A stretch of 64,000 nt of DNA, taken from Thermoanaerobaculia bacterium. Lineage in GTDB: Bacteria > Acidobacteriota > Thermoanaerobaculia > UBA5066. The position numbers and the translations under genes are program-made. Below are positions 1,848 through 55,112 of the stretch, piece by piece; the first letter of the stretch is position 1, and the number at the start of each line of letters is the position of its first letter. Below the pieces are notes generated by a model. That model searched no databases. It worked only from the letters and a program-made list of their open reading frames with translations, and was not told the origin of the DNA. The stretch spans positions 672,001-736,000 of the forward strand of contig CAWFJJ010000024.1 of the NCBI GenBank assembly GCA_963816185.1, read 5' to 3'.

Positions 1848-1932
1848 GAGGAGGAGATTTCTTAGAAAGGAAAGAGGAATCCGGCGCGCATCGCGAACAC
1901 ACCCTTCTAAGAAAATCTTCTTCTTTCCCTCT
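1848..1932. repeat. inverted pair of the dispersed GATTTCTTMGAA motif
   Basis: GATTTCTTAGAA at 1856-1867 and TTCTAAGAAAATC at 1905-1917, with complementary purine/pyrimidine flanks, just past the ABC operon stop. Confidence 0.75.
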
Positions 1933-1933
1933 T

Positions 1934-2782
1934 CTACTTGACCGCGCCGACCGTGAATCCGGCGATGAAGCGGTCCAGGAACAGGTTGTAGATGACGGCG
2001 ATCGGGAGGCTCGCGACGAGGCAGGCCGCCATCAGCGAGCCCCAGTAATAGACGTCGCCGCGCACCAGAAAGATCGGGATGCCCACGCCGACCATCTGAT
2101 TGGACTCGGGCGAGATGAAGGTCAGGGCGTAGACGAACTCCTGGGTCACCAGCGTGAACGTAAAAATGACGACGGTCAGGATCCCGGAGACGGAGATCGG
2201 CACGACCATCCGAAGGAAAGCGCCGAAGCGCGTCAGGCCGTCCACCATGGCCGCGTCCTCGAGCTCCTTCGGGATGGACTTGAAGAAACCCATGAGCAGC
2301 CAGATCGAGAAAGGAATCGTCATGCTCGGGTAGACGAGCACCACGGAAAAGATGCTGTCCTGCAGTCCCAGGATCGCGACGACCCGCGAGAGAGGAATGA
2401 AGAGCAGGGTCGGTGGAATCAGATAGGTGAGAAAGATGGCGATCCCCAGCCGCTCGCCCCAGCGGCCGGCCAGGCGGGCGAGCGCATACGCCGCCGGCAC
2501 GGAAAGGAGAAGCGTGATGGCGACGACGAGCACGCCCACGAGCGCCGTATTGCCCAGCCAGCGGACGAAACGCGTCTCGGTGAACAGGAACTTGAGGTGC
2601 TCGAGCGTCGGTGGGAGGTTGAAGAGGAACGGGTTGTTCTCGACCGTGTAGAGGTCGATGTTCTGCTTGAACGTGGCGACGAGCATCCAGAAGAAGGGAA
2701 ACGCCAGGGCGACGACGAAGAAGGCCAGCACGAAGACATGGAGGGTCCTGGCGCCGAGTCTGCGGAGCGTACTGCGTTCCAT
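1934..2782 (-). CDS. carbohydrate ABC transporter permease (MalG-like)
   Basis: EAA loop IPKELEDAAMVDG; C-terminal GFTVGAVK; ATG overlaps the upstream stop. Confidence 0.9.
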   Translation of the reverse strand: MERSTLRRLGARTLHVFVLAFFVVALAFPFFWMLVATFKQNIDLYTVENNPFLFNLPPTLEHLKFLFTETRFVRWLGNTALVGVLVVAITLLLSVPAAYALARLAGRWGERLGIAIFLTYLIPPTLLFIPLSRVVAILGLQDSIFSVVLVYPSMTIPFSIWLLMGFFKSIPKELEDAAMVDGLTRFGAFLRMVVPISVSGILTVVIFTFTLVTQEFVYALTFISPESNQMVGVGIPIFLVRGDVYYWGSLMAACLVASLPIAVIYNLFLDRFIAGFTVGAVK

Positions 2783-3669
2783 CAGGCCACCTCGGCGCGA
2801 TGTGCGACGCGCAGCATGAGGTACGCGACCGCGACGAGGACCGGCACGAGAAAGAGCGAGATCGCCGCTCCCGCGGCCAGGTCGCTGCCGGCGATCCCCG
2901 TCGCGAAGGCGAGAGACGGCAAGGTCTGGGTCGAATCGAAGGGTCCGCCGGCCGTCAGGATGTAGACGACGATCATGTCGGTGAACGTGAAAACCGTCCC
3001 GAAAAGGACGGCCACCGAGAGGATGGGGGTCATCATCGGGATGTTGATCTGAAAGAGAGTGCGCCAGAAGCCGGCGCCGTCGATCGCAGCCGCCTCCGGG
3101 ATCTCCTTCGGGATGGCGGAGAGACCCGCCAGGATGATCACGGTGGAAAACGGAATCAGACGCCAGCAATGGACGAGGATGACGGAGGCCATGGCGAGGT
3201 GCGGCTCCCCGAGCCACATCGGAGCGCTGTACGGCTTGTACAGATGCACCGCGACGAGCACCCACGTGATTACGCTGTAGATCGAGTCGAGGATCCACTT
3301 CCAGCCGATCGTGCCGAGAGAGACCGGGGCCACCCACGGCAGCAGGATCAGGAAACGGACCAGACCGCGGCCGCGAAAGGGCTTCTCCAGGGCGATCGAG
3401 AGAATCGTCGAGCACACGACGACGACGACCTGAGCGCAGACGGTGAACACGATGGAATTCTGAATCGCCTTCCGAAAGCTGGGGCTTTGCAGGATGCTCC
3501 GGAAATTCTCCAGGCCGACGAAATGAAACTCCGTACTGCCGATCCGCGCGTCGCTGAAGGCATAGAGCACGGCGAGAACGAGCGGCACTCCGACGAGCGC
3601 GACGATGTAGAAGACCGCTGGGAGCAGCATCGCCTGGCCCAGCCAGCGGTCGCCTGATCGCGCGCTCAC
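2782..3669 (-). CDS. carbohydrate ABC transporter permease (MalF-like)
   Basis: FVGLENF; EAAAIDGAG EAA loop; multiple TM segments. Confidence 0.9.
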   Translation of the reverse strand: MSARSGDRWLGQAMLLPAVFYIVALVGVPLVLAVLYAFSDARIGSTEFHFVGLENFRSILQSPSFRKAIQNSIVFTVCAQVVVVVCSTILSIALEKPFRGRGLVRFLILLPWVAPVSLGTIGWKWILDSIYSVITWVLVAVHLYKPYSAPMWLGEPHLAMASVILVHCWRLIPFSTVIILAGLSAIPKEIPEAAAIDGAGFWRTLFQINIPMMTPILSVAVLFGTVFTFTDMIVVYILTAGGPFDSTQTLPSLAFATGIAGSDLAAGAAISLFLVPVLVAVAYLMLRVAHRAEVA

Positions 3670-17066: not shown

Positions 17067-18332
17067 ATGCGCGCCCCGTCATCGAGACCGATCTGGCTCG
17101 TCGTCCTCCTGCTCGGCCCGGGCCCTTCGGCCGCGCAGAACATCCTCGCGAACCCGGGCTTCACCGCGAGTCTCGCCGGATGGACGGTGGAGTCGGGCGT
17201 CTCGGCGGGCTGGTCTCCCCTCGACATCGCCGGATCGGCGGTGTCCGGCTCCGCGCTCGTCACGAATTCCTCGGGCGTCGACGGGTTTTCCGGAGGGCTG
17301 GCGCAGTGCGTCGCCGTGGTTCCCGGTGTCGGGTACGCGTTTCGCGTACGCTTTCGCGTCCCGTCGGCACAGTCGAGCGCCGCGCGGGTTCAGGCGGCTC
17401 TCGATTACTTCTCGGGTCCCTCGTGCGTCGGGACCACGACCGGCGGATTCGGAAACGACACCGGGGCGATCACGTCCGGATTCGACTCCTGGAACGACTT
17501 TGTCATCGGCACGGGCGTCATCCCCACAGGCGTGACGAGCGTCCTCGTCGGCGCCCGCCTCGCGAAGGTGTCTGCCGGCGGAGTCGTTCGGGCGTATTTC
17601 GACTCGCCTTCGCTGGCACCGGTCGCGACGCTCACGATTCCCGCTTCGGCGTCGATCCACGGGCAGAACGGAACGTTTTTTCAGACGGATCTGTGGGTTC
17701 TCGGTTCCTCGGCGCTGTTCGACGTAACGGTCACGGCCCGACATCGCTGTTTTGCTTCTCAGACCTGCACCCATGCGAGTCAGCCTTTCCAGGTCCATCC
17801 CCGCCAGTCCGTGTATTTCACCGACGCGCTCGTCACGCTGTTCGGCGATCCCGGTACGTCCGGGGCGATCGAGCTGAGCTTCGACACGGCCACTCCGATC
17901 ACGGTGCTGTCGCGAACGTACTCGCCGTCGCTTCCCGCGCCGACGACGGGGACGTCGGTGCCGGCGTCTGCCTCATCCGAGGCCCGCACGCGCGCGGTCC
18001 TGGTCGGGCTCGCCTCGAGCGGCGGCGACCTGTCCCAGGGCTTCCGCTCGAACGTGGGCGTCTACAACCCGGGCGCTTCGGCCGTCTCGGTGACGGTCAC
18101 GTTGCACGCTAGCTCGGGAGCGACGCTGGGGGATCCGGTTTCGCTCGAACTGGCGCCGAACGAAGCCCAGCAGGTGAACGACATCTTCTCCGCGGCGGGC
18201 GCCGGGCCGACTCTGTCGAGGAACGCGTATGCCGTCGTGACGTCCGGCGCGGCCGTGTTCTCCTATGCCACGGTCATCGACAACCAGTCCCAGGACTCCG
18301 TGTTCATTGCGGGGGCGGACGACGGATCCTGA
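17067..18332 (+). CDS. secreted protein with carbohydrate-binding-like N-terminal domain and a conserved C-terminal domain
   Basis: Signal peptide, QNILANPGF; C-terminal ASIHGQNGTFFQTDLW, FRSNVGVYNP, YATVIDN. Confidence 0.7.
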   Translation: MRAPSSRPIWLVVLLLGPGPSAAQNILANPGFTASLAGWTVESGVSAGWSPLDIAGSAVSGSALVTNSSGVDGFSGGLAQCVAVVPGVGYAFRVRFRVPSAQSSAARVQAALDYFSGPSCVGTTTGGFGNDTGAITSGFDSWNDFVIGTGVIPTGVTSVLVGARLAKVSAGGVVRAYFDSPSLAPVATLTIPASASIHGQNGTFFQTDLWVLGSSALFDVTVTARHRCFASQTCTHASQPFQVHPRQSVYFTDALVTLFGDPGTSGAIELSFDTATPITVLSRTYSPSLPAPTTGTSVPASASSEARTRAVLVGLASSGGDLSQGFRSNVGVYNPGASAVSVTVTLHASSGATLGDPVSLELAPNEAQQVNDIFSAAGAGPTLSRNAYAVVTSGAAVFSYATVIDNQSQDSVFIAGADDGS

Positions 18333-19468
18333 GGGCCCGAGGGACGCGGACGGGAGCTCAGGCGACCGGCGAGCGACGAGACCGTGGCGGATCGATCGCC
18401 TTCTCTCGTGCGGACGAGAAAGCGCGTGCCGGGTGCGGTCCGCTCGCGCTTGACGTACCCGAGGGCGGTCGCCGACCGGAAGCCCGCCGCGCGCGACGCG
18501 CTCGTCACGGCGCCGACCTTCTCTCCTTCGAAGAAGATCTCGCTGCCGGCTGAAGGAGCTTCGCCGTCCAGGAGCAGCCGAACCAGGCTCCGGTTCACGT
18601 GGCCGTACGTCTTGATGCGAGCCACCGTCTCCTGCCCGATGTAGCAGCCCTTCGTGTCGGAGACGAATCCCCGCTCTCTCAGCCCCGCCTCATCCGGGAG
18701 GACGGCTTCGGTCAGCTCGAATCCCCAGCGGGGGATCCCCGCCTGGATGCGCAGACTCTCCATGTCGGCGTCCGAAGCCTGCCTCGCCCCGGCGACGAGG
18801 AACGCCTTTCGGATCTCTTCTGAATGGGAAGAAAGGCAGCGGACGTCGTAGCCCGGGACGCCCGTCCGGTTCTCGCGAACGAGGCGGATGGGAATGCCGG
18901 TGTCGTGGCCTGTTGACTGAGGAGCATCGGGAGTCGCTGGTTCTTCTTCGAAAAGTAATGAGGCGTGGAACGAGGCCGTCAGCGCCTCCGGCGGCTCGTG
19001 CGCCGGAACGGCGCTGGAGGCCGATTCTTCGAATGGGATTCGCGCCGTGACGTGACCATGCGGCGTGTCCGGCAACGCCGCGGCGGGTCCAAGCCTTATT
19101 ACCTTTCTAAGAAATTCTTCTACCGCGTCTCCCGCCGCCGAATGCTGGAGGTGAAAGACGGCCGTCTCCGATGTGAGATTCCCGACTTCGACCTCGTTGA
19201 AAACCAAATACTTCCGAAGCAGATCTTCAATCTTCTTCGCGAGCTCCGGCTCGCAGTCGATCTCGAGGCGGTCCTCCTCGCAGAGGACGACGCAGTCGGC
19301 AAGGAGCTTTCCCTTCGGCGTGAGGAAGGCCGCCGCGCAGCCGGTGCCCGGCGTGAGCTTCTTGATGTCGTTCGTGACGAGGCCGTGGAGGAATGAAGCG
19401 CGCTCCTTGCCCGTCAGGATCACGGCGCCCCGGCCGGTCACGTCGAAGAAAAGAGGAGCGGACTCCAC
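18263..19468 (-). CDS. ygfZ: folate-binding YgfZ/GcvT-family protein with an internal insertion
   Basis: FLHGLVTNDI, FLTPKGK, KGCYIGQETVAR signature; start uncertain; 3' end overlaps the convergent gene. Confidence 0.85.
   Translation of the reverse strand: MESAPLFFDVTGRGAVILTGKERASFLHGLVTNDIKKLTPGTGCAAAFLTPKGKLLADCVVLCEEDRLEIDCEPELAKKIEDLLRKYLVFNEVEVGNLTSETAVFHLQHSAAGDAVEEFLRKVIRLGPAAALPDTPHGHVTARIPFEESASSAVPAHEPPEALTASFHASLLFEEEPATPDAPQSTGHDTGIPIRLVRENRTGVPGYDVRCLSSHSEEIRKAFLVAGARQASDADMESLRIQAGIPRWGFELTEAVLPDEAGLRERGFVSDTKGCYIGQETVARIKTYGHVNRSLVRLLLDGEAPSAGSEIFFEGEKVGAVTSASRAAGFRSATALGYVKRERTAPGTRFLVRTREGDRSATVSSLAGRLSSRPRPSGPQDPSSAPAMNTESWDWLSMTVA
18812..19117. repeat. cluster of dispersed-motif copies inside ygfZ
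   Basis: TTCTTCGAAAAGTAATGAGGC (18944-18964) is near-complementary to GCCTTATTACCTTTCTAAGAA (19093-19113); further copies at 18812 and 19023. Confidence 0.65.
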
Positions 19469-19745
19469 GCCCGGGATTCTCGCATTCGGCGACGCATCTT
19501 CGATCCGTGCGACAATGCGCCGACGTGACAGAGGTTTCGTGAACGACGCCGCCCCGAAGGCCGCGGGCGGCGCCCGGCGCCGGCGGCGCGGCGGGCGCGG
19601 ACGATCGGGCGCCAAGCCACAGGCGCCCGAGGACCTAGCCGATGCCCCGTTTCCGGAGGCCGAACCCGTTTTCGCCGCCCCGCCCCCCGTCCCCGTCACG
19701 TCGAATTTCATCGAGGGCATGGGGACCCCGCCGCCGGCAGGAGCC

Positions 19746-20501
19746 ATGAATCAGGAAGAACAGAATCTCGCCCTCTTCATCGACATCGACAACCTCCTCA
19801 TTGGATTGCGCGAGACCGGGCATCCGAAGTTCGACGTCAAGCTCCTCATCTCGCGGCTGTTGGAGAAGGGGAAGATCGTCGTCAAGCGCGCGTATGCCGA
19901 CTGGAGCCGCTACACGGAGTACAAGCGCGCCTTCCACGAAAGCGCGTTCGAGCTCATCGACATCCCGCAGCATCGCATGACCGGAAAGAACTCGGCCGAC
20001 ATCCGGATGGTCGTCGACGCGATGGACCTCGCCTCGAACAAAGAGCACATCACGACGTTCGTCATCGGTTCGGGCGACTCGGATTTCTCTCCGCTCGTGT
20101 CGAAGCTGAAAGAGAACAACAAGCAGGTGCTCGGCTTCGGCGTCAAGGGCTCGACCTCGGAGCTGCTCATCGACAACTGCGACGAGTTCCTCTACTACGA
20201 GGACCTCGTCCGCGAGAAGACGAAGACGGCGTCCCTCCAAGGCCTGCCCGAGAAGACCGCCGAGGCGTTCTCCCTGCTCATGGACTCCATCCTCGCGTTG
20301 AAGCGCGAGAACAAAGAGATCCTCTGGGGCTCGATGGTCAAGCAGACCATGCAGCGGAAGAACCCGTCGTTCAACGAGAGCTATTACGGCTTCCGTGCGT
20401 TCTCGGAGCTGCTCGAGGCTGCCGAAGAGTCGAAAGTCATCAGCCTGAAGCGCGACGCGAAGAGCGGCTCGTACATCATCACGGGCTTCGGGAACACCTG
20501 A
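19746..20501 (+). CDS. NYN (LabA/DUF88) domain protein with C-terminal OST-HTH/LOTUS
   Basis: ALFIDIDN, KRAYADW, KNSADIRMVVDA, SGDSDFSPL; FNESYYGFRAFSELL. Confidence 0.9.
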   Translation: MNQEEQNLALFIDIDNLLIGLRETGHPKFDVKLLISRLLEKGKIVVKRAYADWSRYTEYKRAFHESAFELIDIPQHRMTGKNSADIRMVVDAMDLASNKEHITTFVIGSGDSDFSPLVSKLKENNKQVLGFGVKGSTSELLIDNCDEFLYYEDLVREKTKTASLQGLPEKTAEAFSLLMDSILALKRENKEILWGSMVKQTMQRKNPSFNESYYGFRAFSELLEAAEESKVISLKRDAKSGSYIITGFGNT

Positions 20502-20515
20502 AGCGCTCGAGACGC

Positions 20516-20663
20516 GTCCGAAGAGAACGAAGAGAAGATTTCTTAGAATGAGTAAGAGGGGCCCGGGGCGTGGCGGTGTGCGCCGAGCAGACGTTTCTCG
20601 TCGCGCGTCGCGGGAGCCCAAGCCCGATTCAACTTCTAAGAAAATCCTCGGTTCTCTTCGGAC
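20516..20663. repeat. long inverted repeat built on the dispersed motif
   Basis: GTCCGAAGAGAAC (20516-20528) is the exact complement of GTTCTCTTCGGAC (20651-20663); inner GATTTCTTAGAA at 20537 and TTCTAAGAAAATC at 20634. Confidence 0.8.
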
Positions 20664-21204
20664 CTTCCCCTCGATCTGGCCTGTCATCTCCCGCGAGACG
20701 CTCGGCAGCTTCAAGGTCTTCGCGGTCCGGCGCGAGATGCTGCGTTCTCCCCGGACGAATCTCCCGCACCCGTTCTACGTTCTCGATTGCCCGGACTGGG
20801 CGAACGTGGTCGCGCTGACTGACCGGAACGAGGTCGTCCTCGTCAGGCAGTTCCGCGCGGGCACGCGCTCGGTCACGCTGGAGATCCCGGGCGGCGGCGT
20901 GGAGGCGCACGACGGCTCGGCACTCGTGGCGGCCCGCCGCGAGCTGCGCGAGGAGACGGGCCACGTGGCGCGAAGCTGGAACCGCCTCGGTGTCGTGGAA
21001 CCGAATCCGGCCATCCTGTCGAACCGGTGCACGACGTATCTCGCGCGCGGGTGCCGGCCCGTCGGGGATCTCATCCCCGACGCTGGCGAAGACCTCGCCG
21101 TGGAGCTCGTGCCGTTGACCAGCATCCCGGGCCTCATCCGGCGCGGCCGCATCACACATTCTCTGGTGATCGCGGCTTTTCACTTTCTTTCGCTCGCGGG
21201 TTGA
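20548..21204 (+). CDS. NUDIX hydrolase (ADP-ribose pyrophosphatase-like)
   Basis: LVRQFR; Nudix box GGGVE...AARRELREETG; start uncertain. Confidence 0.88.
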   Translation: MSKRGPGRGGVRRADVSRRASREPKPDSTSKKILGSLRTFPSIWPVISRETLGSFKVFAVRREMLRSPRTNLPHPFYVLDCPDWANVVALTDRNEVVLVRQFRAGTRSVTLEIPGGGVEAHDGSALVAARRELREETGHVARSWNRLGVVEPNPAILSNRCTTYLARGCRPVGDLIPDAGEDLAVELVPLTSIPGLIRRGRITHSLVIAAFHFLSLAG

Positions 21205-21248
21205 GATCGGGGCACAACCGTCCCTAGAATCCCTCCCGGGAGGGAGCC

Positions 21249-22226
21249 ATGAAGAAGCTCGGTGCAGCCGCGGTCGTTCTCGTCGCCTGCTCGGGAGCCT
21301 TTCTCGTCGCGAGCACGAAGACGCCTGCCGTGAGGACCTTCGAAGCCACGTACGTCGGGACGATCGCGGCGCTTCCCGCCGCGGCGAAGAAGGCGGAGGT
21401 GTGGATCCCGCTGCCGTCGGACGGCCCCTACCAGGCGATTTCCGACATCAAGGTGGATGCGCCGGCCCCCTTCACGCTCGAAACGGACTCGATGGGAAAT
21501 CGGATGGCGCATTTTGTGCTCGAGAAGCCAGAGCAGTTCGGGAAGGACGTAGTGGTCAAGGCCACGTATCGCGTCACGAGGCGGGAAGCCGTCACTCCCT
21601 CTCCGGGCAGTGCGAAGACGGCCGAGCCTCCCCGCGCAGCAGCTTTTCTGAAGCCGAACCGGCTCGTGCCGCTCACGTCCCGCGTGAAGGAGCTCGCCGA
21701 CACCCTGTCCGCCGGCAAGACCGGCGCCGTCTCCAAGGCACACGCGTTTTACGACTATCTCGTCGACAACGGCACGTACGAAAAGGTGACGCCTGGCTGG
21801 GGCAAGGGCGATTCGGAGCGCTTCTGCGACATCAAGAAGGGAAACTGCACCGATTTCCATTCGGCGTTCATGGCGCTCGCGAGGTCCGAGGGCATTCCGG
21901 TGCGCTTCTCGATCGGCTTTCCGCTCCTGCATGACAAGGAGGGCATCGTTCCCGGATACCACTGCTGGGCCGAGTTCTGGGCGCCAGGACAGGGTTGGGT
22001 GCCGATCGACGCGTCGGACGCGGCGAAGACGAAGGAGCCCGTGAAGAAGGCGTACCTCTTCGGCCACCTCGACCCGGACCGCTTCGACATCACGACCGGC
22101 CGCGATCTCACGCTGTCCCCGCCCCAGAAGGACGGCCCTTTGAACTTCTTCATTTACCCGTACGTCGAGGTGGACGGGAGGGCCTTCGCGGAGACGAAGA
22201 TCCGGCTCGAATATCACGATCTGTGA
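21249..22226 (+). CDS. secreted transglutaminase-like protein
   Basis: GNCTDFH, YHCWAEF, GWVPID (Cys-His-Asp triad); signal peptide. Confidence 0.88.
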   Translation: MKKLGAAAVVLVACSGAFLVASTKTPAVRTFEATYVGTIAALPAAAKKAEVWIPLPSDGPYQAISDIKVDAPAPFTLETDSMGNRMAHFVLEKPEQFGKDVVVKATYRVTRREAVTPSPGSAKTAEPPRAAAFLKPNRLVPLTSRVKELADTLSAGKTGAVSKAHAFYDYLVDNGTYEKVTPGWGKGDSERFCDIKKGNCTDFHSAFMALARSEGIPVRFSIGFPLLHDKEGIVPGYHCWAEFWAPGQGWVPIDASDAAKTKEPVKKAYLFGHLDPDRFDITTGRDLTLSPPQKDGPLNFFIYPYVEVDGRAFAETKIRLEYHDL

Positions 22227-24404: not shown

Positions 24405-24545
24405 CTTCGTCTCCTTCGCGGCGGAAGGGCCGCACGGAGGCGTCTTCACGAACGATGCCGGGCACCCCGTGCCGTGGACGGGGCGCTCTTCGCTCATCCG
24501 CGATCTCTGTTTCGAAGAAACATACTCCGCATCGCATGATTCCGC

Positions 24546-24596
24546 CATCACACGCATCACACGGGATGAGAGACGCCGCGCGGCACGAAGCATGAA
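24546..24596 (+). promoter_or_regulatory. tandem CATCACACG x2 and a weak sigma-54-like promoter
   Basis: CATCACACG at 24546-24554 and 24555-24563; CGGCACGAAGCATGAA at 24581-24596 (GG-N10-GA rather than GC). Confidence 0.3.
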
Positions 24597-24640
24597 ACGC
24601 CCTCTCCGGGCGCGGACAGGACCCGCGCCGGGAGGTTCAC

Positions 24641-26164: not shown

Positions 26165-26173
26165 TCGCGGCGG

Positions 26174-26698
26174 ATGACGATCACGCTGAAGGAGAACGAA
26201 GACCGGAGGCTGCGGCGAAAATCCGCAGCCTTTCGCTTGAAGCACGATGTCGGAAAAGCGCTCCGCTGGAGCGCGCCGGAAGACAGGGAAAAGGACGCCG
26301 AGGCTCTGCGCGCGCGGCTTGCAGCCGACCTCCTGCCGCGCGCGAGCGGCGGCGGCGCGAATCGTGACGTCCTGGAAACTTTCTTCGAATGGAAGAGGGA
26401 AGAGGGGCCGTTGTTTGCGAGCGGCGATCCGGATCTGGAAGCGGTCGAGCGGGCCATGACGACGGTGGGTCGCCTCGTCCCCCGACTCGCCTCCCCCCTC
26501 TTTCCATTCAAAGAATCCTCCTCTTCTCTTTCCGAATCTTCTCTTTCCGAAAACAAGTCCCTTCCTCTCTCCGAGCCTTCCCTCGTTTCCCTCGACGAAG
26601 CCTGTCTCGAGGCGTCGCGTGCCTGCACGGCGTTCTACCGCCGCGTCGCTCTCGACGACGGGCCGGAGATCGTGCGGCCTCTCGGAGAGCGCCGGTGA
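26174..26698 (+). CDS. hypothetical protein with an H-box-like RLKHDVGK motif (possible phosphotransfer protein)
   Basis: Operon-coupled; helical; Ser-rich insert coincides with the dispersed motif. Confidence 0.6.
   Translation: MTITLKENEDRRLRRKSAAFRLKHDVGKALRWSAPEDREKDAEALRARLAADLLPRASGGGANRDVLETFFEWKREEGPLFASGDPDLEAVERAMTTVGRLVPRLASPLFPFKESSSSLSESSLSENKSLPLSEPSLVSLDEACLEASRACTAFYRRVALDDGPEIVRPLGERR
26379..26551. repeat. inverted motif pair plus 15-bp tandem duplication in coding sequence
   Basis: TTCTTCGAATGGAAGAGGG (26381-26399) versus CCCTCTTTCCATTCAAAGAA (26496-26515); TCTTCTCTTTCCGAA x2 at 26522-26551. Confidence 0.7.
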
Positions 26699-34168: not shown

Positions 34169-34728
34169 TGGTTTCGGAAGAGGGGAGAGGGATTCTTCGA
34201 AAGGTGGCGTTGGCTGCGGCGGCCCGCGCGATGGGACTTCCAGCATCCCCGCGGCCGGTGATCGCTGCGGTAACCGCTCTCGCCAGCCCTGCGCCCGTCT
34301 TTGTGACGTGGAAGCGGGACGGGCGGCCGCGGGGGCGCAGCGGAACGACCGAGACCGCGCGCGGGCTCGTCGAAGAGGTCGAGGAGCACGCCGTGGCGGC
34401 GCTCCTGCACGACCCGAGATTCCCTCCAGCGACCGCCAAGGAGCTCCCGCGCTACGCGCCCGAGATCTCCGTTCTTTCCACCTTCGAAGAAATCTTCTCT
34501 TCCTCCGAAGGAATCTCCGATCTCTCCCGGCTCGACTCGGGCCTGCATGGTGTCGTCGTCGAAAAAGGGAAACGCCGCGGGGTCGTCCTGCCTCAGGATG
34601 CCGCGACGTTCGGCTGGGACGGCGCGCGCATCCTGTCCCAGGCGTGCCTCAGGGCGGGGCTGCCGGAGGAGAGCTGGAAGGCCGCGAGCCCTCCCCGCCT
34701 CCTCCGGTTCACCGCGGAGGTCTTCTGA
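34165..34728 (+). CDS. AMMECR1/AmmeMemoRadiSam protein A-like, degenerate
   Basis: VFVTWK, DPRFPP, EISVLS, GLHGVVV, VLPQDA, CLRAGL, FTAEVF; PRGRSG instead of LRGCIG. Confidence 0.8.
   Translation: MMVSEEGRGILRKVALAAAARAMGLPASPRPVIAAVTALASPAPVFVTWKRDGRPRGRSGTTETARGLVEEVEEHAVAALLHDPRFPPATAKELPRYAPEISVLSTFEEIFSSSEGISDLSRLDSGLHGVVVEKGKRRGVVLPQDAATFGWDGARILSQACLRAGLPEESWKAASPPRLLRFTAEVF
34177..34518. repeat. inverted motif pair inside the AMMECR1-like gene
   Basis: GAGGGATTCTTCGAAAGGTGG (34187-34207) versus CCACCTTCGAAGAAATCTTCTC (34478-34499). Confidence 0.7.
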
Positions 34729-35530: not shown

Positions 35531-36355
35531 CTACCGCGCGGACGCGGCCGGGCGCGACAGAATGTGGAGGAGAACGCCCGCGGCGACGGCCGCGTTCAGG
35601 GAGTCGACACGGCCGGCGAGAGGCAGCGTGACGCGATGGTCGAGCGACGCGGCGATCTCAGGGGAGATTCCGTGGCCTTCGGAGCCGATCACGAGGGCGA
35701 GAGGTCGGACGCCTGCGAGGTCTTCGGGAGCCGTGCCGCCATGCGCCGCAGCTCCGCCGAGGGCTATGCCTTGCCGGCGAGCCCAGGCGATGGCCTCACT
35801 TGGAGCGACGCCCTCCACGACGGGCAATCGGAAGGCGCTGCCTGCCGACGCGCGCAGCGCGCGCGGTGAAAAAGGCCACGCACAGCCGGGCGTCAGGAGA
35901 GCGGCGGCAGCTCCGAACGCCTCGCCGCTCCGGAGGATCGCCCCCACGTTCGCGGGGTCCTGGACGTCGTCGAGGAGGAGAAAAAGAGAAGACGAGGAGG
36001 GAGATGTCTTTGAAGGTAATAGGGCTGAAAGCGAAGTCAGATCGCGGTGGGGAGGCGCCGCGAGCGCGACGACGCCGCGTGTCGAGGGGAGATCCGAGAG
36101 CTTCCGAAGAACGCGCGCCGAGACACGTGTTACGCGGGCGTCCCCTCTTCCCGTTCTAAGAAAATCTTCGTCTTCTTTTTCTGCTCTCTCTTCCTCCGGA
36201 TTTCTCTGAACAAAGACTTCTTCTATCTGCACCCCCGCGTCGAGAGCCTCCTCGATCATTCGCGCACCCTCGAGCAGCATCTTTTCGTGCGCCGCGACGG
36301 CCTTGACGGCGGCCGCGATACGCGGGTTCGACGGGGATTCGATGCGCGTCGTCAT
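35531..36355 (-). CDS. TrmH/SpoU family RNA methyltransferase
   Basis: VQDPANVGAILRS, RASAGS, GSEGHGI, SLNAAVAAG. Confidence 0.92.
   Translation of the reverse strand: MTTRIESPSNPRIAAAVKAVAAHEKMLLEGARMIEEALDAGVQIEEVFVQRNPEEERAEKEDEDFLRTGRGDARVTRVSARVLRKLSDLPSTRGVVALAAPPHRDLTSLSALLPSKTSPSSSSLFLLLDDVQDPANVGAILRSGEAFGAAAALLTPGCAWPFSPRALRASAGSAFRLPVVEGVAPSEAIAWARRQGIALGGAAAHGGTAPEDLAGVRPLALVIGSEGHGISPEIAASLDHRVTLPLAGRVDSLNAAVAAGVLLHILSRPAASAR
35972..36197. repeat. inverted motif pair inside trmH
   Basis: AGAAAAAGAGAAGACGAGG...GATGTCTTTGAAGGTAATAGGGC (35979-36025) versus CCCCTCTTCCCGTTCTAAGAAAATCTTCGTCTTCTTTTTCT (36142-36182). Confidence 0.7.
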
Positions 36356-38878: not shown

Positions 38879-40425
<1,547 letters not shown>

Positions 40426-40436
<11 letters not shown>

Positions 40437-41724
40437 GCCGAGCTATACGCCGCTCGGTGACCTTTGCGACTCCGAGCGGGGAATAACCTATGGAATCGTA
40501 AAAGTAGGCGACTTTGTTCCCGGCGGCGTCCGAGTGATTCGAGGTGGAGACATTCGCAATGGGCGTATCGCATTCGATGACGAGAAGAGAGTCACAGAGG
40601 GGATTAGCCAGCAGTTTCAGCGAACCATCCTCAAGGGCGGCGAAATCATTATCAACTTGATCGCTGAGCCCGGACACACCGCCATCGTGCCGCAGGATCT
40701 GGCTGGCGCAAATGTCTCGCGCGACGTCGGCGTGATTCCCCTTAACAACTCGGTTGATCACCGGTATGTCGACTACTGCCTTAAGTCGCCGCAGGCCATT
40801 CAATGGCTCACCGCGCGGCTACAGGGCAGCGTGACACAGAAGATCAACCTCGGAACGCTTCGTGACCTACCCATCCCGACTCCTACCGTGGAGGAACAGA
40901 GCGCTATAGCCGGAATTCTCGGCGCTCTCGACGACAAGATCGAGCTAAACCGACGGATGAACGAGACGCTTGAGGCGATGGCACGGGCGATCTTCAAGTC
41001 CTGGTTCGTCGACTTCGACGTCGTCCGCGCCAAGGCGGAAGACCGCGGCTCAAGCCTCCCGAAACCCCTCTCCGCCATCTTCCCCGCCCGCCTTGTGGAC
41101 TCCGACCTGGGCGAGATTCCGGAAGGATGGGGAGTGGGGACCGTCGCTCACTTCTGCACTCTAAATCCGGAAACATGGTCGAAGGAGACACGTCCGCCCA
41201 TTATCAAGTACGTCGATCTCTCGAATACGAAGTGGGGCCGAATCGAGACAGTCACGGCCCATACACAGAAGGACGCGCCGAGTCGGGCGCAGCGGGTCCT
41301 GCGAACGCGAGACACGATTGTCGGTTCGGTACGACCCGGGAACGGCTCGTACGCCTTCGTCTCCGAGGACGGACTTACCGGTAGCACGGGCTTCGCCGTC
41401 CTTCGGCCTCTAAGAGTCGAATACGCGGAGTTCGTGTACTTCGCGGTCACGGCTGCCGGGAACATCGATGCGCTCGCGCACTTGGCGGATGGCGGAGCTT
41501 ATCCGGCGGTACGTCCCGAAGTCGTCGCGGCAACTCAAGCAGTCAAGCCAGGAGATGCCGTGATCGAGAGATTTTCAAGTATTACGCGGCCGCTGCTCGC
41601 CAAGATGGCCGAGAACGAGCGCGGAACCCGCACGCTCGCCGCCCTTCGCGACACTCTGCTGCCGAAGCTGCTGTCGGGCGAGCTTAGGGTGGGGGAGGGA
41701 AACCGACGCGGCGGCCAACCATGA
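40426..41724 (+). CDS. hsdS: type I R-M specificity subunit
   Basis: Two TRDs flanking [38 protein letters not shown]; C-terminal [16 protein letters not shown]. Confidence 0.93.
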
Positions 41725-42785
41725 GCAGAGATGAGCGCCGCTTTGAGCTGCCGAGGAGTATCGAACGGCATCTCGCAACGCTATCGACGCTTTACGCCAA
41801 AGAGGGGCAGACGCAGAAGCAGCGAATCCTCGTCAACGCGCACGTCAGAGTGCATGAGGAATGGAGCAGGGATAATTGGGACGGCGGCACATACGGTCAT
41901 GCGCTCTACCTGGCGGTTCCAGAGGTTCTCTACGTCGAAGTTTTGAGAAAGAAGGAAACCCTCCAGGAGGAAATCAAGGCCGACCTGAATAAGGTCCATA
42001 ACGTCCAGCATGAATTCATCGAGGAGGTGTTCCTGGAGATGGACGTGCCCGCCGATTTGGATTGGCGGCGTGAATCGGGTGTCCTTGAGGCGGGGAAGCG
42101 CGATGTTCCCTCCGATACTCTGAAGCGGATTTGGGGGGACAGTGGATTCCGCGTGTTCTTGAGCCACAAAGCAGAGGTAAAAAAGGAGGCATCTGGCCTT
42201 AAAGAAAGAATTTGCGTGTACGGTGTATCGGCATTTGTGGCGCACGAAGACATCCACCCGACAAAGGAATGGCAGGACGAAATTGAAAGCGCCTTGTCCT
42301 CGATGGATGCTTTCGTAGCCCTTATGACGGACAACTTTCACGACAGCCTCTGGACTGACCAGGAGGTGGGGTATGCGCTTGGTCGCGGCGTACCGATCAT
42401 CGCTGTGAAGTTGGGCCGCGATCCATATGGGTTCATCGGCCGATTTCAGGCGCTGTCGTGTGGTTGGTCGGACGTGGCCGAAGGAATCACGAAGCTTCTC
42501 GTGAAGACATCACGCATGAAGGATGCGTATGTCGCCGCGGTGGCAAGGTGTCGGAGCTATGATGACGGTAACTTACTCGCAAGAGTACTCGGTAGTATCG
42601 ATGGACTTACAACCGCTCAGGGCGATGCGCTGGCAGTTGCGTTCAACGAGAACCCGGAGGTGAGCGGAAGTTTTGGCTTTAGCGGAACGTGGGCTGCAAA
42701 GCACGGAGAAGGTTTGATTCCTCATCTTATACGGACAACTGGCCGTGGGTACCATCTGGCGAAAACCGGAAAGATCCAAGTGTGA
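41721..42785 (+). CDS. TIR-domain protein with unknown N-terminal domain
   Basis: RVFLSH, AFVAHEDI, SLWTDQEVGYA (catalytic-position Glu); ATGA-coupled to hsdS; lower GC. Confidence 0.85.
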   Translation: MSRDERRFELPRSIERHLATLSTLYAKEGQTQKQRILVNAHVRVHEEWSRDNWDGGTYGHALYLAVPEVLYVEVLRKKETLQEEIKADLNKVHNVQHEFIEEVFLEMDVPADLDWRRESGVLEAGKRDVPSDTLKRIWGDSGFRVFLSHKAEVKKEASGLKERICVYGVSAFVAHEDIHPTKEWQDEIESALSSMDAFVALMTDNFHDSLWTDQEVGYALGRGVPIIAVKLGRDPYGFIGRFQALSCGWSDVAEGITKLLVKTSRMKDAYVAAVARCRSYDDGNLLARVLGSIDGLTTAQGDALAVAFNENPEVSGSFGFSGTWAAKHGEGLIPHLIRTTGRGYHLAKTGKIQV

Positions 42786-42974
42786 GTGTGACCGAATGCG
42801 TGTCTGCACCCTAGGTCCAGCGGCGTGTCGTGCGTGCTTGGACCTGTTGCGAGGAGCAGCGGTGTCGGATCAGGGGCTGAGTCCGTTGAGCGTTCGGCCA
42901 TCAGCCGTCTCTTGGCCGACCTGGGTGTTAGCAGATGCTCATACATGCCTTCGGAGGGCCCGAAGCCCATCCGG

Positions 42975-43547
42975 TCAAAGTGCGCGTTTCGACGTCTGCG
43001 CACGCAGCGTCTTCAACACCTTGTTGACGATCTTCAGGTCGAATCGCTCCGGGTCGTAGCGTGGGCCGGCCCATTTCCTCATCTGCGTGTGCTCCTCGTG
43101 CTTAGGGTCGCGCCAGGCCTCGAGGAAGTCCTCGTAGCCGGGGATGCCGCCGCAGTCCTCGGGCGGAGCGGAGCGAGCGCCGTCGAGGCAGATGGGGTAG
43201 CGCACAGCGGGGTCAGGAGCGAATCGCTTCTCGACGGCGATGTCGTGGATCCATTCGTCGCCGAGGTCGTAGACGTACGTGAAGCGGTCAACGTCCGGCG
43301 AGACCAGGCCACCGAGGCGAGTCGTGCGCGGGTGGCGTGGGAAGGGCGGCTCGGCGACCTTCGCCCGCCCGACGTTGAACTCGTAGAGGTGGGCATGTTT
43401 CCAGCCAAACGACCACTGGATGATCTCGTGAAGAAGGTGGAACGTCCGGGTGCTCGTGACCTGGATGACGCGAAAGACCGGCGGCTCGATTTCGCGGATC
43501 TGAATCCGGAGCTGGAGCGCCTCTTCGGGGAAAGCCGCGGCTTTCAT
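42975..43547 (-). CDS. plasmid pRiA4b ORF-3-like protein
   Basis: LHEIIQWSFGWKHAHLYEF, YVYDLGDEWIH, PPEDCGGIPGY. Confidence 0.88.
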   Translation of the reverse strand: MKAAAFPEEALQLRIQIREIEPPVFRVIQVTSTRTFHLLHEIIQWSFGWKHAHLYEFNVGRAKVAEPPFPRHPRTTRLGGLVSPDVDRFTYVYDLGDEWIHDIAVEKRFAPDPAVRYPICLDGARSAPPEDCGGIPGYEDFLEAWRDPKHEEHTQMRKWAGPRYDPERFDLKIVNKVLKTLRAQTSKRAL

Positions 43548-43577
43548 GGGCGTAGAATTCTGTCTCATGAAAGCCGC
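43530..43577. promoter_or_regulatory. palindromic junction, putative bidirectional leaderless promoter/operator
   Basis: GCGGCTTTCATG-N17-CATGAAAGCCGC; TAGAAT (+) and CAGAAT (-) overlap 8-9 nt upstream of the two ATGs; extra palindrome GAAAGCCGCGGCTTTC at 43530-43545. Confidence 0.55.
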
Positions 43578-43890
43578 CGAAGCAATTCCTGCAGGCCGAA
43601 TAGCGGCTTCGACAGAGGTCATCGCCGGCTTCTGCCGGCGGCATCACATCCGCAAGCTCTCGTTGTTCGGCTCCGTGCTGCGCGACGACTTCCGTCCGGA
43701 GAGCGACGTCGACGTTCTCGTCGAGTTCGAGCCCGCCCACGTTCCCGGATTTATTCGAATGGCAGCGATGGAGAACGAACTCTCGGTGTTGCTAGGACGA
43801 AAGATTGACCTGTTGACCCCGAACTCGATCAGCCACTATTTTCGCGAGAGGGTTCTTCGGGAAGCGTGCCTGCTGCATGACGCAGCATGA
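43567..43890 (+). CDS. minimal nucleotidyltransferase antitoxin (MntA-like)
   Basis: LFGSVLRDDFRPESDVDVLV (GS-X10-DXD). Confidence 0.9.
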   Translation: MKAAEAIPAGRIAASTEVIAGFCRRHHIRKLSLFGSVLRDDFRPESDVDVLVEFEPAHVPGFIRMAAMENELSVLLGRKIDLLTPNSISHYFRERVLREACLLHDAA

Positions 43891-44224
43891 AGCGCTCGTT
43901 CGACTCGGGCACATGCTGGAAGCGTCGCGAGAAGCGACGGAGCTCGCCCGAGGGAAGACGCGGCAGTATCTCAGTCAGAACCGGCTTCTCGAGCTCGCAT
44001 TGACGCGTCTCGTGGAGATTGTGGGCGAGGCCGCCTCCCGGGTCCCGAAAGAGGATCAGGCGCGCTTTCCGGACATTCCATGGGCCGACATCGTGGGAAT
44101 GCGAAACCGTCTCGTTCACGGCTATACGGAGATCGACATCGACGCGCTGTGGAGCACGATAGAAGAGGATCTGCCGGCGCTTGTCCCACTGCTCGAAGCC
44201 GCCTTGGGGCCCGGTCGGAAATAG
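43877..44224 (+). CDS. HEPN (DUF86/HepT-like) ribonuclease toxin
   Basis: IVGEAA, IPW, MRNRLVHGY (RX4HXY). Confidence 0.9.
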   Translation: MTQHEALVRLGHMLEASREATELARGKTRQYLSQNRLLELALTRLVEIVGEAASRVPKEDQARFPDIPWADIVGMRNRLVHGYTEIDIDALWSTIEEDLPALVPLLEAALGPGRK

Positions 44225-53401: not shown

Positions 53402-53492
53402 CGTTCCTCCTCGGACGGGTCGATTATCGCCGCGCCGCGCGGCGGTGCCGACAGAGGGGATCGTGGACGACGGCCGGCCACGCCTGGAACCG

Positions 53493-55076
53493 CTAGGCCA
53501 TGCCCTCGAGCGACTTGATCAGGAGGTGTTTCTGCACCTTCCCGAGCACGTTGCGGGGAAGCTCGGCCACCGCGCGAAGCTCGCGCGGCTTCTTGAAATC
53601 CGCGAGATGCGAGGCGGCGAAGGAGGTGATCTCCTCGCAAATCCTCTTCGCGCCTTCCTCGTCGCAGCGCTCGACGAGGACGACGGCCGCCGCGATGCGC
53701 TGGCCCCAGACGCGGTCGGGCAGGCCGACGACGGCCGCGTCCTTGACCGCGGGGTGCAGCCGGAGAACGTCCTCGATCTCGCGGGCCGAGATCTTGTAAC
53801 CGCCGCTCTTGATCACGTCGACCGACTTGCGGCCGAGGATCGTCACGTAGCCGTCGGCGTCCCGTCTCGCCACGTCACCCGTCAGGAACCAGCCGTCTCG
53901 GAACGCGGCCGCCGTGTCGGCCTCGCGCCCCCAGTAGCCGCTCATGAGGCCGCTGCCCTTGACGTGGATCTCTCCAGGCTCGCCTTCCGGGGTGTCGTGC
54001 CCGTCGTCGTCGACGAGCCGCATCGCGCAGCCGGGCACGGGGAACCCGACGGTGCCCGGCCGCCGCTCTCCCTCGTAAGGATTCGAGAGCGTGAAAAGCG
54101 TCTCGCTCATTCCGTACCGTTCCAGGATCGCGTGACCGGTCCTCTCGCGGAATGCGGCGAAGTCGGCCGACGGGAGCGCCGCGCTGCCGGACGTGAAGAG
54201 CCTGGCCTTCCGGAGCGCCTCGGCTCGCTCGGGATGACCTTCCAGATGTTCGAGCAGGCGGACGTACATCGTCGGCACGCCCATGAACGCCGTGGCACCC
54301 TCGTTCGCGAACGCGTCCACGACGCGCGCCGCGTCGAAGCGCTCTTCGAGGAGAAGAGTGAATCCGCGAAGGAGCGCGCCCGCCACTCCGAGACAGAGCC
54401 CGTGCACGTGGAAAAGGGGAAGCGCGAGCACGAGGCGATCGGCCGGGCTGAAGCGCCAGAGGTCCATCATTGCGCGCGTGTTCGTCTCGAGGGCGCGATG
54501 CGACAACGCGACACCCTTGCTCTTGCCCGTCGTACCCGACGTGTAGATGAGCATCGCGACATCGTCGTCATGTGGCGGGTCGGTCCGTACGAGGCTCGAA
54601 GAGGAAGATTTCTTAGAAGGGGAAGAGAGAGATACAGATTTCTTAGAGGGGGAGGAGGGGAGGGCGGCGGGAATGGGGAGGACGTGCCGTAGCTGCGGGG
54701 GTCTTTGTTTTCTCAGGACTTCTTCCAGGACGGCATGGCAAGGTTCGCCCTCCCGCGTCAGGACCGCGACCGCGCCCGAGTCCTCGAGGATGTGCCGGGC
54801 CTCGTCGGCCTTGTACCGCGTGTTGATCGGAACGTGGATGACACCCGACGAGAGGTGCCCGACGAAAGCGGCGACGAGCTCGGGACAGGTCTCGGCGAAA
54901 ACCGCGACGCGATCCCCACGCTTGACGCCCGCGCGCTCCAGAAAGATGACGTATGACTCAGCCCACCGGCGTATTTCTTCGAATGGGTAAGAGCGGCCGT
55001 TCCAGACGACAGCCGAATGCGCGGCGCGGTTGCGCAGCGCGAGAAGTAAGCGCGAGCCGGCCGACAAATGCTCCAT
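53493..55076 (-). CDS. acyl-CoA synthetase (malonyl-CoA synthetase MatB-like)
   Basis: YTSGTTGKSKG, LPLFHVHGL, ERYGMSET, GWFLTGD, LPRNVLGKVQK. Confidence 0.88.
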   Translation of the reverse strand: MEHLSAGSRLLLALRNRAAHSAVVWNGRSYPFEEIRRWAESYVIFLERAGVKRGDRVAVFAETCPELVAAFVGHLSSGVIHVPINTRYKADEARHILEDSGAVAVLTREGEPCHAVLEEVLRKQRPPQLRHVLPIPAALPSSPSKKSVSLSSPSKKSSSSSLVRTDPPHDDDVAMLIYTSGTTGKSKGVALSHRALETNTRAMMDLWRFSPADRLVLALPLFHVHGLCLGVAGALLRGFTLLLEERFDAARVVDAFANEGATAFMGVPTMYVRLLEHLEGHPERAEALRKARLFTSGSAALPSADFAAFRERTGHAILERYGMSETLFTLSNPYEGERRPGTVGFPVPGCAMRLVDDDGHDTPEGEPGEIHVKGSGLMSGYWGREADTAAAFRDGWFLTGDVARRDADGYVTILGRKSVDVIKSGGYKISAREIEDVLRLHPAVKDAAVVGLPDRVWGQRIAAAVVLVERCDEEGAKRICEEITSFAASHLADFKKPRELRAVAELPRNVLGKVQKHLLIKSLEGMA

Positions 55077-55112
55077 GGCCCTATTCACCTTCTAAGAAAA
55101 TCCATCTTCTCC
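54598..55112. repeat. cluster of dispersed-motif copies in and upstream of the acyl-CoA synthetase
   Basis: GATTTCTTAGAA at 54607, GATTTCTTAGAG at 54637, ATTTCTTCGAATGGGTAAGAG at 54973, inverted TTCTAAGAAAATC at 55090. Confidence 0.75.

Follow-up and report, generated by a model that had tools for sequence, protein, structure and literature searches.

Repeat copies in the window and their host genes

The window studied here is a stretch of 64,000 nucleotides from a Thermoanaerobaculia bacterium (Acidobacteriota), positions 672001-736000 of contig C24 in genome G000 (5,088,052 bp in 30 contigs, 67.2% GC, completeness 94.9%). Our subject is a short dispersed repeat in this window, the AT-rich word TTCTTAGAA set in a purine-rich stretch, as was seen by reading the sites that an original prediction had listed. 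That prediction gave 18 positions in seven clusters, in each of which a forward copy lies left and a reverse copy right. Using a weight matrix that spans positions -12 to +21 and was built from all genomic copies (the per-site window scores below are bits from this matrix), we recovered 16 of the 18 positions at 14 bits or more; positions 18812 and 19023 were missed, and an extra copy was found at 18527(-). The observation is confirmed, and genome-wide it is far stronger than could be judged from the window sequence. All seven clusters face inward by the matrix, as had been claimed, the pairs being 1859/1905, 18944/19105, 20540/20634, 26381/26507, 34193/34483, 36006/36154 and 54975/55090, and there is one tandem forward pair, 54610/54640. 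The word GATTTNCTTAGAA, with up to one mismatch, has five matches in the window compared to 0.07 expected (none of 100 shuffles reached five), and GATTTCTTAGAA, also with up to one mismatch, has six matches compared to 0.06 expected from shuffles.

Forward arms are on the plus strand and reverse arms on the minus strand throughout. The first pair has a spacing of 46 bp: its forward arm (1845..1879, core 1859-1867, 36.0 bits) is intergenic, and its reverse arm (1893..1927, core 1905-1913, 34.3 bits) lies just beyond the stop of an ABC permease gene, 1934-2782(-), with the Pfam domain BPD_transp_1. Three arms are held by a GCV_T-like gene, 18263-19747(-), which was hidden from both the gene caller and the plain list of open reading frames (ORFs): a strong reverse arm (19093..19127, core 19105, 39.1 bits), translated AVEEFLRKVIR, with a match at the orthologous site in all 23 genus loci that span it; a weak forward arm that pairs with it (18930..18964, core 18944, 17.2 bits), translated LLFEEE; and the extra copy, a reverse arm in sense orientation (18515..18549, core 18527, 22.3 bits), translated SEIFFEGEKVG, which has matches at the corresponding place in most loci of the genus and none above 12 bits in the outgroup loci L026-L030. 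It should be noted that the GCV_T-like gene is masked by a longer overlapping plus-strand ORF, 19173-20501; the true start of the NYN-domain gene is probably near 19750, and open frames in GC-rich DNA mislead simple gene calling. A forward arm (20526..20560, core 20540, 34.3 bits) follows 38 nt beyond the stop of the NYN-domain gene, and its partner, 94 bp away (20622..20656, core 20634, 33.3 bits), is upstream of a NUDIX gene.

Further along, a weak forward arm in the intergenic region upstream of a sigma-54 activator gene (26367..26401, core 26381, 19.3 bits) is paired with a reverse arm at 26495..26529 (core 26507, 25.4 bits). A gene in which we identified the AMMECR1 domain carries a very weak forward arm at its start (34179..34213, core 34193, 14.4 bits), which may be a chance match, and a reverse arm (34471..34505, core 34483, 32.3 bits) with the center altered to TTCGAAGAA and the translation STFEEIFSSSE. 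The next pair starts in a divergent intergenic region, with a forward arm at 35992..36026 (core 36006, 23.9 bits) and a reverse arm 148 bp away (36142..36176, core 36154, 37.5 bits). The AMP-dependent ligase gene, 53493-55088(-), contains the two tandem forward arms (54596..54660, cores 54610 and 54640, 42.3 and 29.0 bits), which are antisense to it and translated SPSKKSVSLSSPSKKSSSSS, and a weak forward arm (54961..54995, core 54975, 19.8 bits), whose antisense translation is SYPFEEI. Finally, a strong reverse arm (55078..55112, core 55090, 40.0 bits) lies between an ABC ATPase gene and the ligase start. Four of the listed copies (34193, 54975, 18944 and 26381) are weaker: at only 14-20 bits, and in overlap with common coding sequence of the F-E-E-I kind, they would not convince if taken alone.

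The inner part of the 55078..55112 arm, AAGGTGA, is at the distance of a ribosome-binding site from the ATG at 55077. Such a role is likely at this arm and a few other places only; it is not general, because distances to starts are broad and sense and antisense copies in genes are equally frequent. The reverse arm TTCACCTTCTAAGAAATC (e.g., 55078-55112) is similar to the 3' end of 16S rRNA with the start of the spacer, GATCACCTCCTTTCTAAGGGATC (L111:3030-3070), save for a 4-nt gap, which may be a coincidence; correspondingly, the forward arm has AAGGTGA, resembling a ribosome-binding site. A rule by which forward copies carry TTT and reverse copies TTTT turned out to be a coincidence of the window (genome-wide counts 51/50 and 28/21). 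Two stretches of the window, 40001-44000 and 58001-64000, have 60-63% GC compared to 67% for the genome and contain no motif copy; likewise, none of the 11 genomic 20-kb bins with GC below 64% has a copy, in agreement with the reported lack of copies in foreign islands. Some soil-metagenome contigs join separate motif sites (20550 to 26501, 36170 to 19103, and 20013 to 26998); these joins are most likely assembly cross-links at the repeat.

The motif and its genome-wide frequency

The exact 9-mer core TTCTTAGAA occurs 337 times in the 5.09 Mb of G000, 165 times on one strand and 172 times on the other, whereas base composition predicts approximately 2 per strand, or approximately 4 in total, by our own calculation. 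Position frequencies over the 337 copies give the order: a GAAGAG-like purine run, (A/T)T, TTCTTAGAA, GG, (G/T), G, AA and a G-rich end. Each arm therefore reads inward as (GAAGAG-like purine run)-GAT-TTCTTAGAA-GGTGAAKAGGG over approximately 30-35 bp. The core is a 9-bp palindrome with a free central base, the flanks give the arm its asymmetry, and a pyrimidine-rich run trails the pair on either strand. With the weight matrix at 24 bits or more, we found 504 copies, i.e., approximately one per 10 kb, compared to 53 in a control scan of the reversed (not complemented) genome; as the motif comes close to being a mirror repeat, this is a generous control.

The position frequencies of the 337 core copies reveal neither a GTAG nor a CGTC tag. 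[quoted passage not shown] Rfam 15 at the gathering score had no matches in the window, and eight element loci yielded two sub-threshold, microRNA-like chance matches only.

The inward pair is the unit

Among neighboring copies no more than 500 bp apart in G000, 117 are forward-then-reverse and 5 are reverse-then-forward, with 23 and 23 on the same strand. Of the 347 strong copies (28 bits or more), 273, or 79%, have an inward partner (14 bits or more, at 40-400 bp), and 12 have an outward one; the same rule applied both ways yields 232 inward pairs versus 11 outward pairs. The asymmetry extends across the genus: in 29 genomes, exact cores with a 55-85-nt gap form 337 inward pairs, present in 28 of the 29, and no outward pairs. 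These counts show that the pair, not the single copy, is the unit, and that the inward layout predicted from the window holds genome-wide.

The core-to-core spacing has a mode at 74-79 bp (25 of the 117 pairs), a second bump at 150-156 bp and a broad tail, so that outside the peak it ranges from 45 to 350 bp. The peak is mainly intergenic: spacings of 72-82 bp are found in 25 of the 82 intergenic pairs versus 11 of the 106 genic pairs. There is no helical periodicity of the spacing (period 10.5, Rayleigh p 0.215), and a weak periodic signal at 25-27 bp is due to the spacing peaks near 75 and 150 bp.

The spacers are unrelated, as the original prediction had stated. A word-based BLAST comparison found no shared interior, the exceptions being assembly duplicates and one nested repeat, and local alignment of 122 distinct spacers gave a median best-partner score of 25 compared to 24 for shuffled sequences; 14 of the 122 exceed the shuffled maximum, mostly in Ser/Thr kinase paralogs. 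It should be noted that nine such paralogs (G000 C23:5303, C24:616380, C24:620203, C4:8673, C5:136940 and others) carry motif-like sequences 93 nt apart, flanking conserved kinase sequence (..LPEEFFEGEE.. and ..YSFEEI..SSSS); these are either protein-driven matrix matches or arms fixed before the paralogs split. Arms from the same pair resemble each other no more than arms from different pairs do (0.363 compared to 0.368, standard deviation 0.008). Because the arms match the family consensus but not each other, it would be the individual arm sequence that is read, on double-stranded DNA. A division into two arm types (GGTGAAT.. and GGGTGAGTG..) was dropped as a general rule, fitting only 6 of the 232 pairs in G000.

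Placement in the genome and reading through genes

Using a codon-usage model trained on G000, we called 4334 genes that cover 87% of the sequence. Only 54% of the copies (271 of the 504) are genic, and the remaining 233 are intergenic, which corresponds to an approximately six-fold enrichment per base in intergenic DNA; accordingly, the motif is both intergenic and intragenic, as had been noted in the window. The genic copies are divided between 138 sense and 133 antisense, are evenly spread along genes, and in 161 of the 271 cases are at least 300 nt from the gene start and at least 150 nt from its end. In the neighbor-pair set, 50 of the 117 pairs are inside genes, and by the matrix rule 106 of the 232 pairs lie within a single ORF and are read through. 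These proportions fit insertion where it is tolerated. Motif density is not uniform: contig C29 (467 kb) has 0.24 copies per 10 kb compared to 1.5-1.7 on C24 and C28, and could be an independent replicon, DNA of recent acquisition or the result of faulty binning.

Intergenic pairs comprise 33 in co-directional, 10 in divergent and 6 in convergent regions, of which the genome has 3096, 602 and 606, respectively; the share of pairs per class is roughly proportional to the number of regions, and all four intergenic types are represented. The forward arms of intergenic pairs are located at a median of 30 nt after the stop of an upstream gene on the same strand (84 of 106 within 65 nt), compared to a median of 117 nt from the start of an upstream gene; the difference fits the unequal free room at gene ends and gene starts. 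The orientation of copies has no relation to GC skew (97:97 and 32:27), that is, there is no Chi-like polarity and no replichore bias, for which a test had been proposed.

Within genes, the motif word is found in every stop-free reading frame. In the 50 intragenic pairs, the forward side is translated as ..EDFL(E/R).., ..KISSKGEE.. or similar, and the reverse side as ..SPSKK.., ..LLRK.. or ..F(K/E)E... Where the frame would give a stop, the center of the core is altered, TAG to TCG or TTG, and TAA to GAA or AAA. Therefore, the weaker TTCTTCGAA and TTCTTTGAA variants are reading-frame adaptations.

Taxonomic range and conservation at orthologous sites

The motif is abundant in all sampled genomes of the genus (24 of 24 and 16 of 16). 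The 11-mer TTCTTAGAAGG is found in 37-267 copies, a seven-fold variation, in 24 of 24 genus genomes, and in 0-2 copies in 16 genomes from other genera within the order. In a sample of 301 genomes drawn from the class, all 17 of this genus have at least 51 copies, a sister-genus genome (G174) has 31, and the remaining 283 have no more than 9, the level of the backwards control. We conclude that this is a real, genus-wide hairpin-doublet repeat family, and the earlier description of a lineage-specific, genome-wide signal is borne out, with G174 as the only other genome of the 301 in which the motif is abundant. Another sister-genus genome, G082, has one copy. The arms in G174 are the same as in the genus, with spacings of 75-78 bp; however, G174 lacks the motif at both orthologous sites examined (the GCV_T-like gene and the AMP ligase) that are common to the sampled species of the genus, and thus its copies arose separately. 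Two of the motif-poor outgroup genomes, G025 and G030, are unpublished, and L148, from G025, is among the four ligase outgroup rows; none of the conclusions depends solely on these two.

In the GCV_T-like gene, the match at the forward-arm site is kept in 23 of the 23 covering loci of the genus; many of these also retain the reverse arm, at a distance of exactly 80 bp (at least eight species), and two further sites. The entire arm-to-arm segment is missing in other genera. The forward-arm site reads GAT TTx CTx AGA AGG, with AGAA kept in 22 of 23 loci. In G000, AGA and AGG account for 2.7% and 7.8% of arginine codons, and CTT and TTA for 8.9% and 0.2% of leucine codons. The retention of AGA in 22 of 23 loci, while the third base of the leucine codon drifts, shows constraint at the level of DNA and not of the peptide alone. 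In the AMP ligase, 19 of 21 genus rows carry an SPSKK-type loop, and four other genera have an unrelated loop of similar length; 15 of the 21 genus loci contain exact TTCTNAGAA, as does none of the 8 loci from other genera. Since in-gene sites persist at orthologous positions with rare codons preserved, these sequence comparisons indicate that selection acts on nucleotides, and that the arms are under sequence-specific, nucleotide-level constraint.

Gain and loss of units

The site behind the NYN-domain gene (window 20502-20659) is full, short, collapsed or empty, depending on the species. G000 has the full unit with an 85-nt spacer; in G003 and G011, the spacers are 13 nt and 18 nt; G008 and G017 have one core between purine and pyrimidine flanks; G023 has the forward arm only, and G015 has nothing. 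At the population level, the data are low-depth soil metagenome contigs, one of which (at least 90% likeness) skips 164 bp (window 20496-20659), with 9 other letters in between; this is weak evidence because the shorter side has only 29 letters, which puts it under the caution limit of the tool. The argument of the original prediction against a MITE is thus upheld in one part and weakened in another: there is no shared interior, so the unit is not a simple MITE, whereas insertion and loss of whole units revive an origin from a mobile element.

Two side observations concern other repeats in G000. The segments C14:38435-44946 and C24:140105-147248 are near-identical and multi-gene, in inverted order on separate contigs, with one gene carrying a motif pair; either the segment was duplicated in the genome or the assembly contains it twice. 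Another repeat family, approximately 150 nt long, consists of a long hairpin around GTCAAGGGTC...GACCCTTGAC, then a hairpin CGGCGGCTGCATCAGCAGCCGCCG, then CATATAAGAA, with examples outside the window at C24:525600-525950 (L154), C8:188200-188600 (L155) and C29:80750-81150 (L156). It has 33 complete copies (80 matches of a 14-nt marker), is frequently found just inside the forward arm of the motif studied here, has its central segment inverted in 4 of 18 aligned copies, and has no Rfam match.

Proposed explanation and alternatives

The explanation that we tentatively prefer, although it falls somewhat short of probable, is an old non-autonomous hairpin-doublet element, the arms of which are read on double-stranded DNA by a putative end-pairing protein. 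Its layout is close to those of MITEs and of REPINs (hairpin-forming REP doublets), and its in-frame insertions in genes recall Rickettsia palindromic elements (RPEs). The unit would be a hairpin doublet of two inverted, inward-facing arms around a spacer that is free in sequence. A transposon-like palindromic element of this kind may have spread in the ancestor of a single genus of Acidobacteriota and, independently, in G174, settling where it was tolerated, i.e., just beyond stops, in divergent intergenic regions and in protein surface loops. Units in genes are read through in frame, one strand encoding ..EDFL(R/E).. and the opposite one ..SPSKK.. or ..F(K/E)E..; the element would later have been inherited vertically, with the arms kept at the nucleotide level. 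The reader would most likely be a two-fold symmetric or end-pairing protein, such as a transposase, a recombinase or a domesticated descendant. The proposal is favored by the pair as the unit, the REPIN-like spacing preference, the gain and loss of entire units, the separate spread in G174, the placement where insertion is tolerated, the constraint on nucleotides and the individual reading of arms. While the paired unit, its orientation rule and taxonomic range, the orthologous conservation, the translation and the gain and loss of units are shown by the data, we infer the reading of the arms by a protein, the spread by transposition and a present-day role for the cell.

Several observations weigh against this proposal. 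Arm and host sequence are duplicated in tandem in some cases (rows L002 and L006), so that some copies arise without transposition, and recent copying is not seen, the 122 spacers of different copies being unrelated. The search for a mobilizing enzyme covered Y1 transposases, including the REP-associated tyrosine transposases (RAYTs), IS630 and IS4/5. A co-distributed HUH/RAYT transposase, for which the original prediction had called, was not found: Y1/RAYT (Y1_Tnp, PF01797) has 0 matches in G000 and is present in 3 of 24 genus genomes, compared to 11 of 16 motif-less genomes of other genera. RAYT/REPIN membership was rejected on this absence and rarity; together with the lack of a GTAG tag and the genic location of half of the copies, it agrees with the earlier statement that the motif is not a classical REP. 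IS630 (DDE_3) and IS4/5 (DDE_Tnp_1) were not found in the motif carriers G001 and G174, and the lone IS630 copy of G000 has no motif nearby; with no co-occurrence, both were rejected as mobilizers. Transposases are also missing from arm-gene-arm units: adjacent copies separated by 500-4000 bp form 10 inward pairs, only one of which encloses a single gene, and the product of that gene, read by eye from its sequence, resembles an outer-membrane protein bearing a signal peptide. A clear target-site duplication did not emerge when empty and full sites were compared. A TA duplication inside TTCT-TA-AGAA would account for both core forms; however, the unfilled 10-mer TTCTTAAGAA has zero occurrences, and the TA target-site model was set aside. 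Finally, the long conservation of hundreds of arms is unlike what is predicted for a dead transposon, and needs a present function or drive.

A doubtful further proposition is that the pairs are not relics and are the working sites of a putative, genus-specific protein system, by which two asymmetric sites in head-to-head arrangement are read on double-stranded DNA. If true, hundreds of sites would be preserved at the cost of rare codons and of extra loops in approximately 100 host proteins, and the motif would be a new type of genome-wide DNA signal in Acidobacteriota, serving chromosome architecture or topology, self-marking, or a domesticated, RAYT-less transposase network. A related alternative, in our estimate an unlikely one, is that the pairs, along the lines of the nucleoid or looping site originally suggested, are sites for a host architectural or topological DNA protein. 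A two-fold symmetric complex would bind a head-to-head pair of asymmetric sites and wrap or loop approximately 75 bp, in the manner of the Escherichia coli repeats bound by gyrase or integration host factor (see below), and selection for chromosome organization or supercoil management would maintain the sites, irrespective of how they originated. This alternative would account for the fit of arms to the consensus and not to each other, the strict orientation rule with a preferred spacing, the independence of orientation from transcription (138:133) and GC skew (97:97 and 32:27), the genus-wide nucleotide conservation at orthologous sites, and the 9-bp palindrome around a free center. However, no candidate protein was identified, spacing off the peak is broad (45-350 bp) without helical periodicity (10.5, p 0.215), the spacing varies from 0 to 85 nt between species at one orthologous site, and the gain and loss of whole units and the different sites in G174 are left unexplained. 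An uptake- or recombination-type signal (an uptake-like sequence was also among the roles first suggested), which would accumulate by molecular drive because cells favor motif-bearing DNA and would be restored by recombination among relatives, like the DNA uptake sequences (DUS) and uptake signal sequences (USS), is quite unlikely, although much of the distribution would suit it: a core specific to one genus, equal orientations without replichore bias, low-GC bins without copies, the use of all stop-free frames, conserved orthologous sites, and 54% of copies in coding DNA against 87% coding sequence, which is near the 47-70% against 84-89% given for uptake sequences in PMC2346458. The near-obligate pairing and the density of approximately one per 10 kb argue against such a signal: according to the same source, far smaller genomes contain uptake sequences by the hundreds to thousands, and a substantial fraction are outside inverted pairs, whereas 79% of strong copies here are paired inward. 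Moreover, new sites look like the insertion of an entire unit, complete with its purine and pyrimidine flanks, and not like point changes, and genomes of the genus differ seven-fold in copy number (37 to 267).

A hairpin acting at the level of RNA in any crossing transcript (an mRNA stabilizer, an RNase III site, an attenuator or a bidirectional terminator) seems very unlikely. The unit is the same on both strands, so its arms pair in any transcript that crosses it; in the minimum-energy folds of 83 of the 89 pairs the forward and reverse cores are base-paired to each other (mean z -3.6), intergenic forward arms follow stops closely (median 30 nt, 84 of 106 within 65 nt), and a pyrimidine-rich run comes after the unit on either strand. 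The core pairing is, however, what any inverted repeat would do. Complementarity within pairs is not in excess (0.363 compared to 0.368), the spacer alone is unstructured (z -0.17), and ten orthologous elements contain no compensatory changes in the arm-to-arm stem (covariation term +0.25), so that long-range RNA or single-stranded DNA stems, one of the roles originally suggested, are not supported as the constraint. In addition, 106 of the 232 pairs lie within ORFs, divergent and convergent regions contain pairs equally often (10/602 and 6/606), and the unit has an AU-rich stem base, no U tract and no Rfam match. An intrinsic terminator was rejected on the lack of a GC-rich stem with a U tract, on the 10 divergent versus 6 convergent pairs, and on the 50 of 117 pairs in genes. 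The notion that the pairs delimit invertible segments (invertons, some of them intragenic), with the DNA between the arms flipped by a site-specific recombinase, draws on inverted repeats that share a consensus and flank short segments, many in genes; it is most improbable, given that simulated inversion of intragenic pairs leaves the host frame open in 14 of 50 cases compared to 15 and 12 for two control frames, that most segments are only approximately 60 bp, and that the loci number in the hundreds, many in conserved enzymes. A strand-switch joint within a pair was not seen in the metagenome contigs over the window, which are poor evidence either way. As for a by-product of composition or of protein sequence (F-E-E-I and E-D-F-L peptides, Ser-rich linkers), some weak copies are plain coding sequence (34193 and 54975), and the nine kinase paralogs have motif-like sequence around a conserved segment. 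For the strong copies it is refuted by the excess of exact cores (337 compared to approximately 4 predicted) and of matrix matches (504 compared to 53), by the same DNA word in intergenic DNA, on both gene strands and in several frames, and by the kept rare codons; with the restriction of the motif to one genus, the probability of this explanation is negligible.

Implications

Interspersed palindromic repeats such as REPs, REPINs, RPEs and MITEs are known mainly from Proteobacteria and a few other groups, and for most of them the reader and the reason for persistence are unsettled. This motif family offers an unusually clean case, with an orientation ratio of 337 to 0 across 29 genomes, a narrow taxonomic range and a contrast within the sister genus (31 copies in G174 compared to 1 in G082). 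Approximately 100 copies per genome are written into proteins, and the nucleotide-level conservation of their arms dates back to the origin of the genus. It thereby becomes testable which protein reads such repeats without a RAYT, and how much protein sequence a genome yields for a DNA signal. There are practical consequences as well: the repeat cross-links metagenome contigs, which is a hazard for binning this genus, and in gene calling it gives rise to long spurious ORFs and displaced start codons, as at window 18263-20501.

Comparison with known repeat systems

The REPIN doublets of Pseudomonas fluorescens SBW25, which are mobilized by RAYTs, peak at 71 and 110 bp according to PMC3116915. 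What they have in common with the family described here is an inverted doublet of short repeats, a less conserved spacer, a sharp spacing preference (71/110 bp there, 74-79 bp here), singlets that look like decayed doublets, hundreds of copies per genome and long vertical inheritance. They differ in that RAYT/Y1 is absent from G000 and present in 3 of 24 genus genomes, that a single arm here is not a GTAG-tagged imperfect palindrome, that REPINs are extragenic whereas 271 of 504 copies here are genic and 106 of 232 pairs lie in one ORF, and that the arms of a pair here are no more alike than arms across pairs.

REPs within genes, and CGTC-tagged repeats without a dedicated transposase, are already reported in PMC3733652, and in-frame insertion of RPEs in Rickettsia genes is described in PMC10969869. 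As presented in these two sources, RPEs resemble the motif pairs in being in frame and translated in unrelated genes, in being shared at orthologous sites within a genus, and in being compatible with the function of the protein. By the account in PMC3733652, however, they are conserved over their whole length of approximately 100-150 bp and have a CGTC tag, whereas here the conservation is confined to the arms, spacers are unrelated and there is no CGTC; the acidobacterial host here is free-living and GC-rich. Bacterial MITEs, among them the Correia elements of Neisseria, share with our units terminal inverted repeats of approximately 25-35 bp, a total of approximately 110-190 bp, two size classes and occasional insertion in genes, going by PMC10969869. 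In contrast to MITEs, the units here have no shared interior and no parent insertion sequence with the same ends among the families tested (Y1/RAYT, IS630 and IS4/5), and their arms are conserved genus-wide.

The uptake sequences of Neisseriaceae (DUS) and Pasteurellaceae (USS), as characterized in PMC2346458, likewise have a taxon-specific short core and use both strands equally; approximately half of their copies fall within coding DNA, where several frames are used, orthologous sites are conserved, and inverted pairs follow some genes. The density here is lower by approximately ten-fold or more (theirs is approximately one per kb, mostly as single sites), the inward pair at 40-400 bp is near-obligatory here, and units come and go as insertions and deletions.

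Some clusters of REPs in Escherichia coli, the bacterial interspersed mosaic elements (BIMEs), are bound by gyrase or integration host factor; these clusters are known from extragenic DNA only and are part of the GTAG-REP/RAYT system. They share with the motif pairs inverted short repeats with defined linkers between genes, and are acted on by DNA-bending or DNA-wrapping host proteins; their sequence is unrelated to that of the motif. Taken together, the family described here joins the doublet architecture of REPINs with the in-frame residence in genes of RPEs, and fails the defining tests of both.

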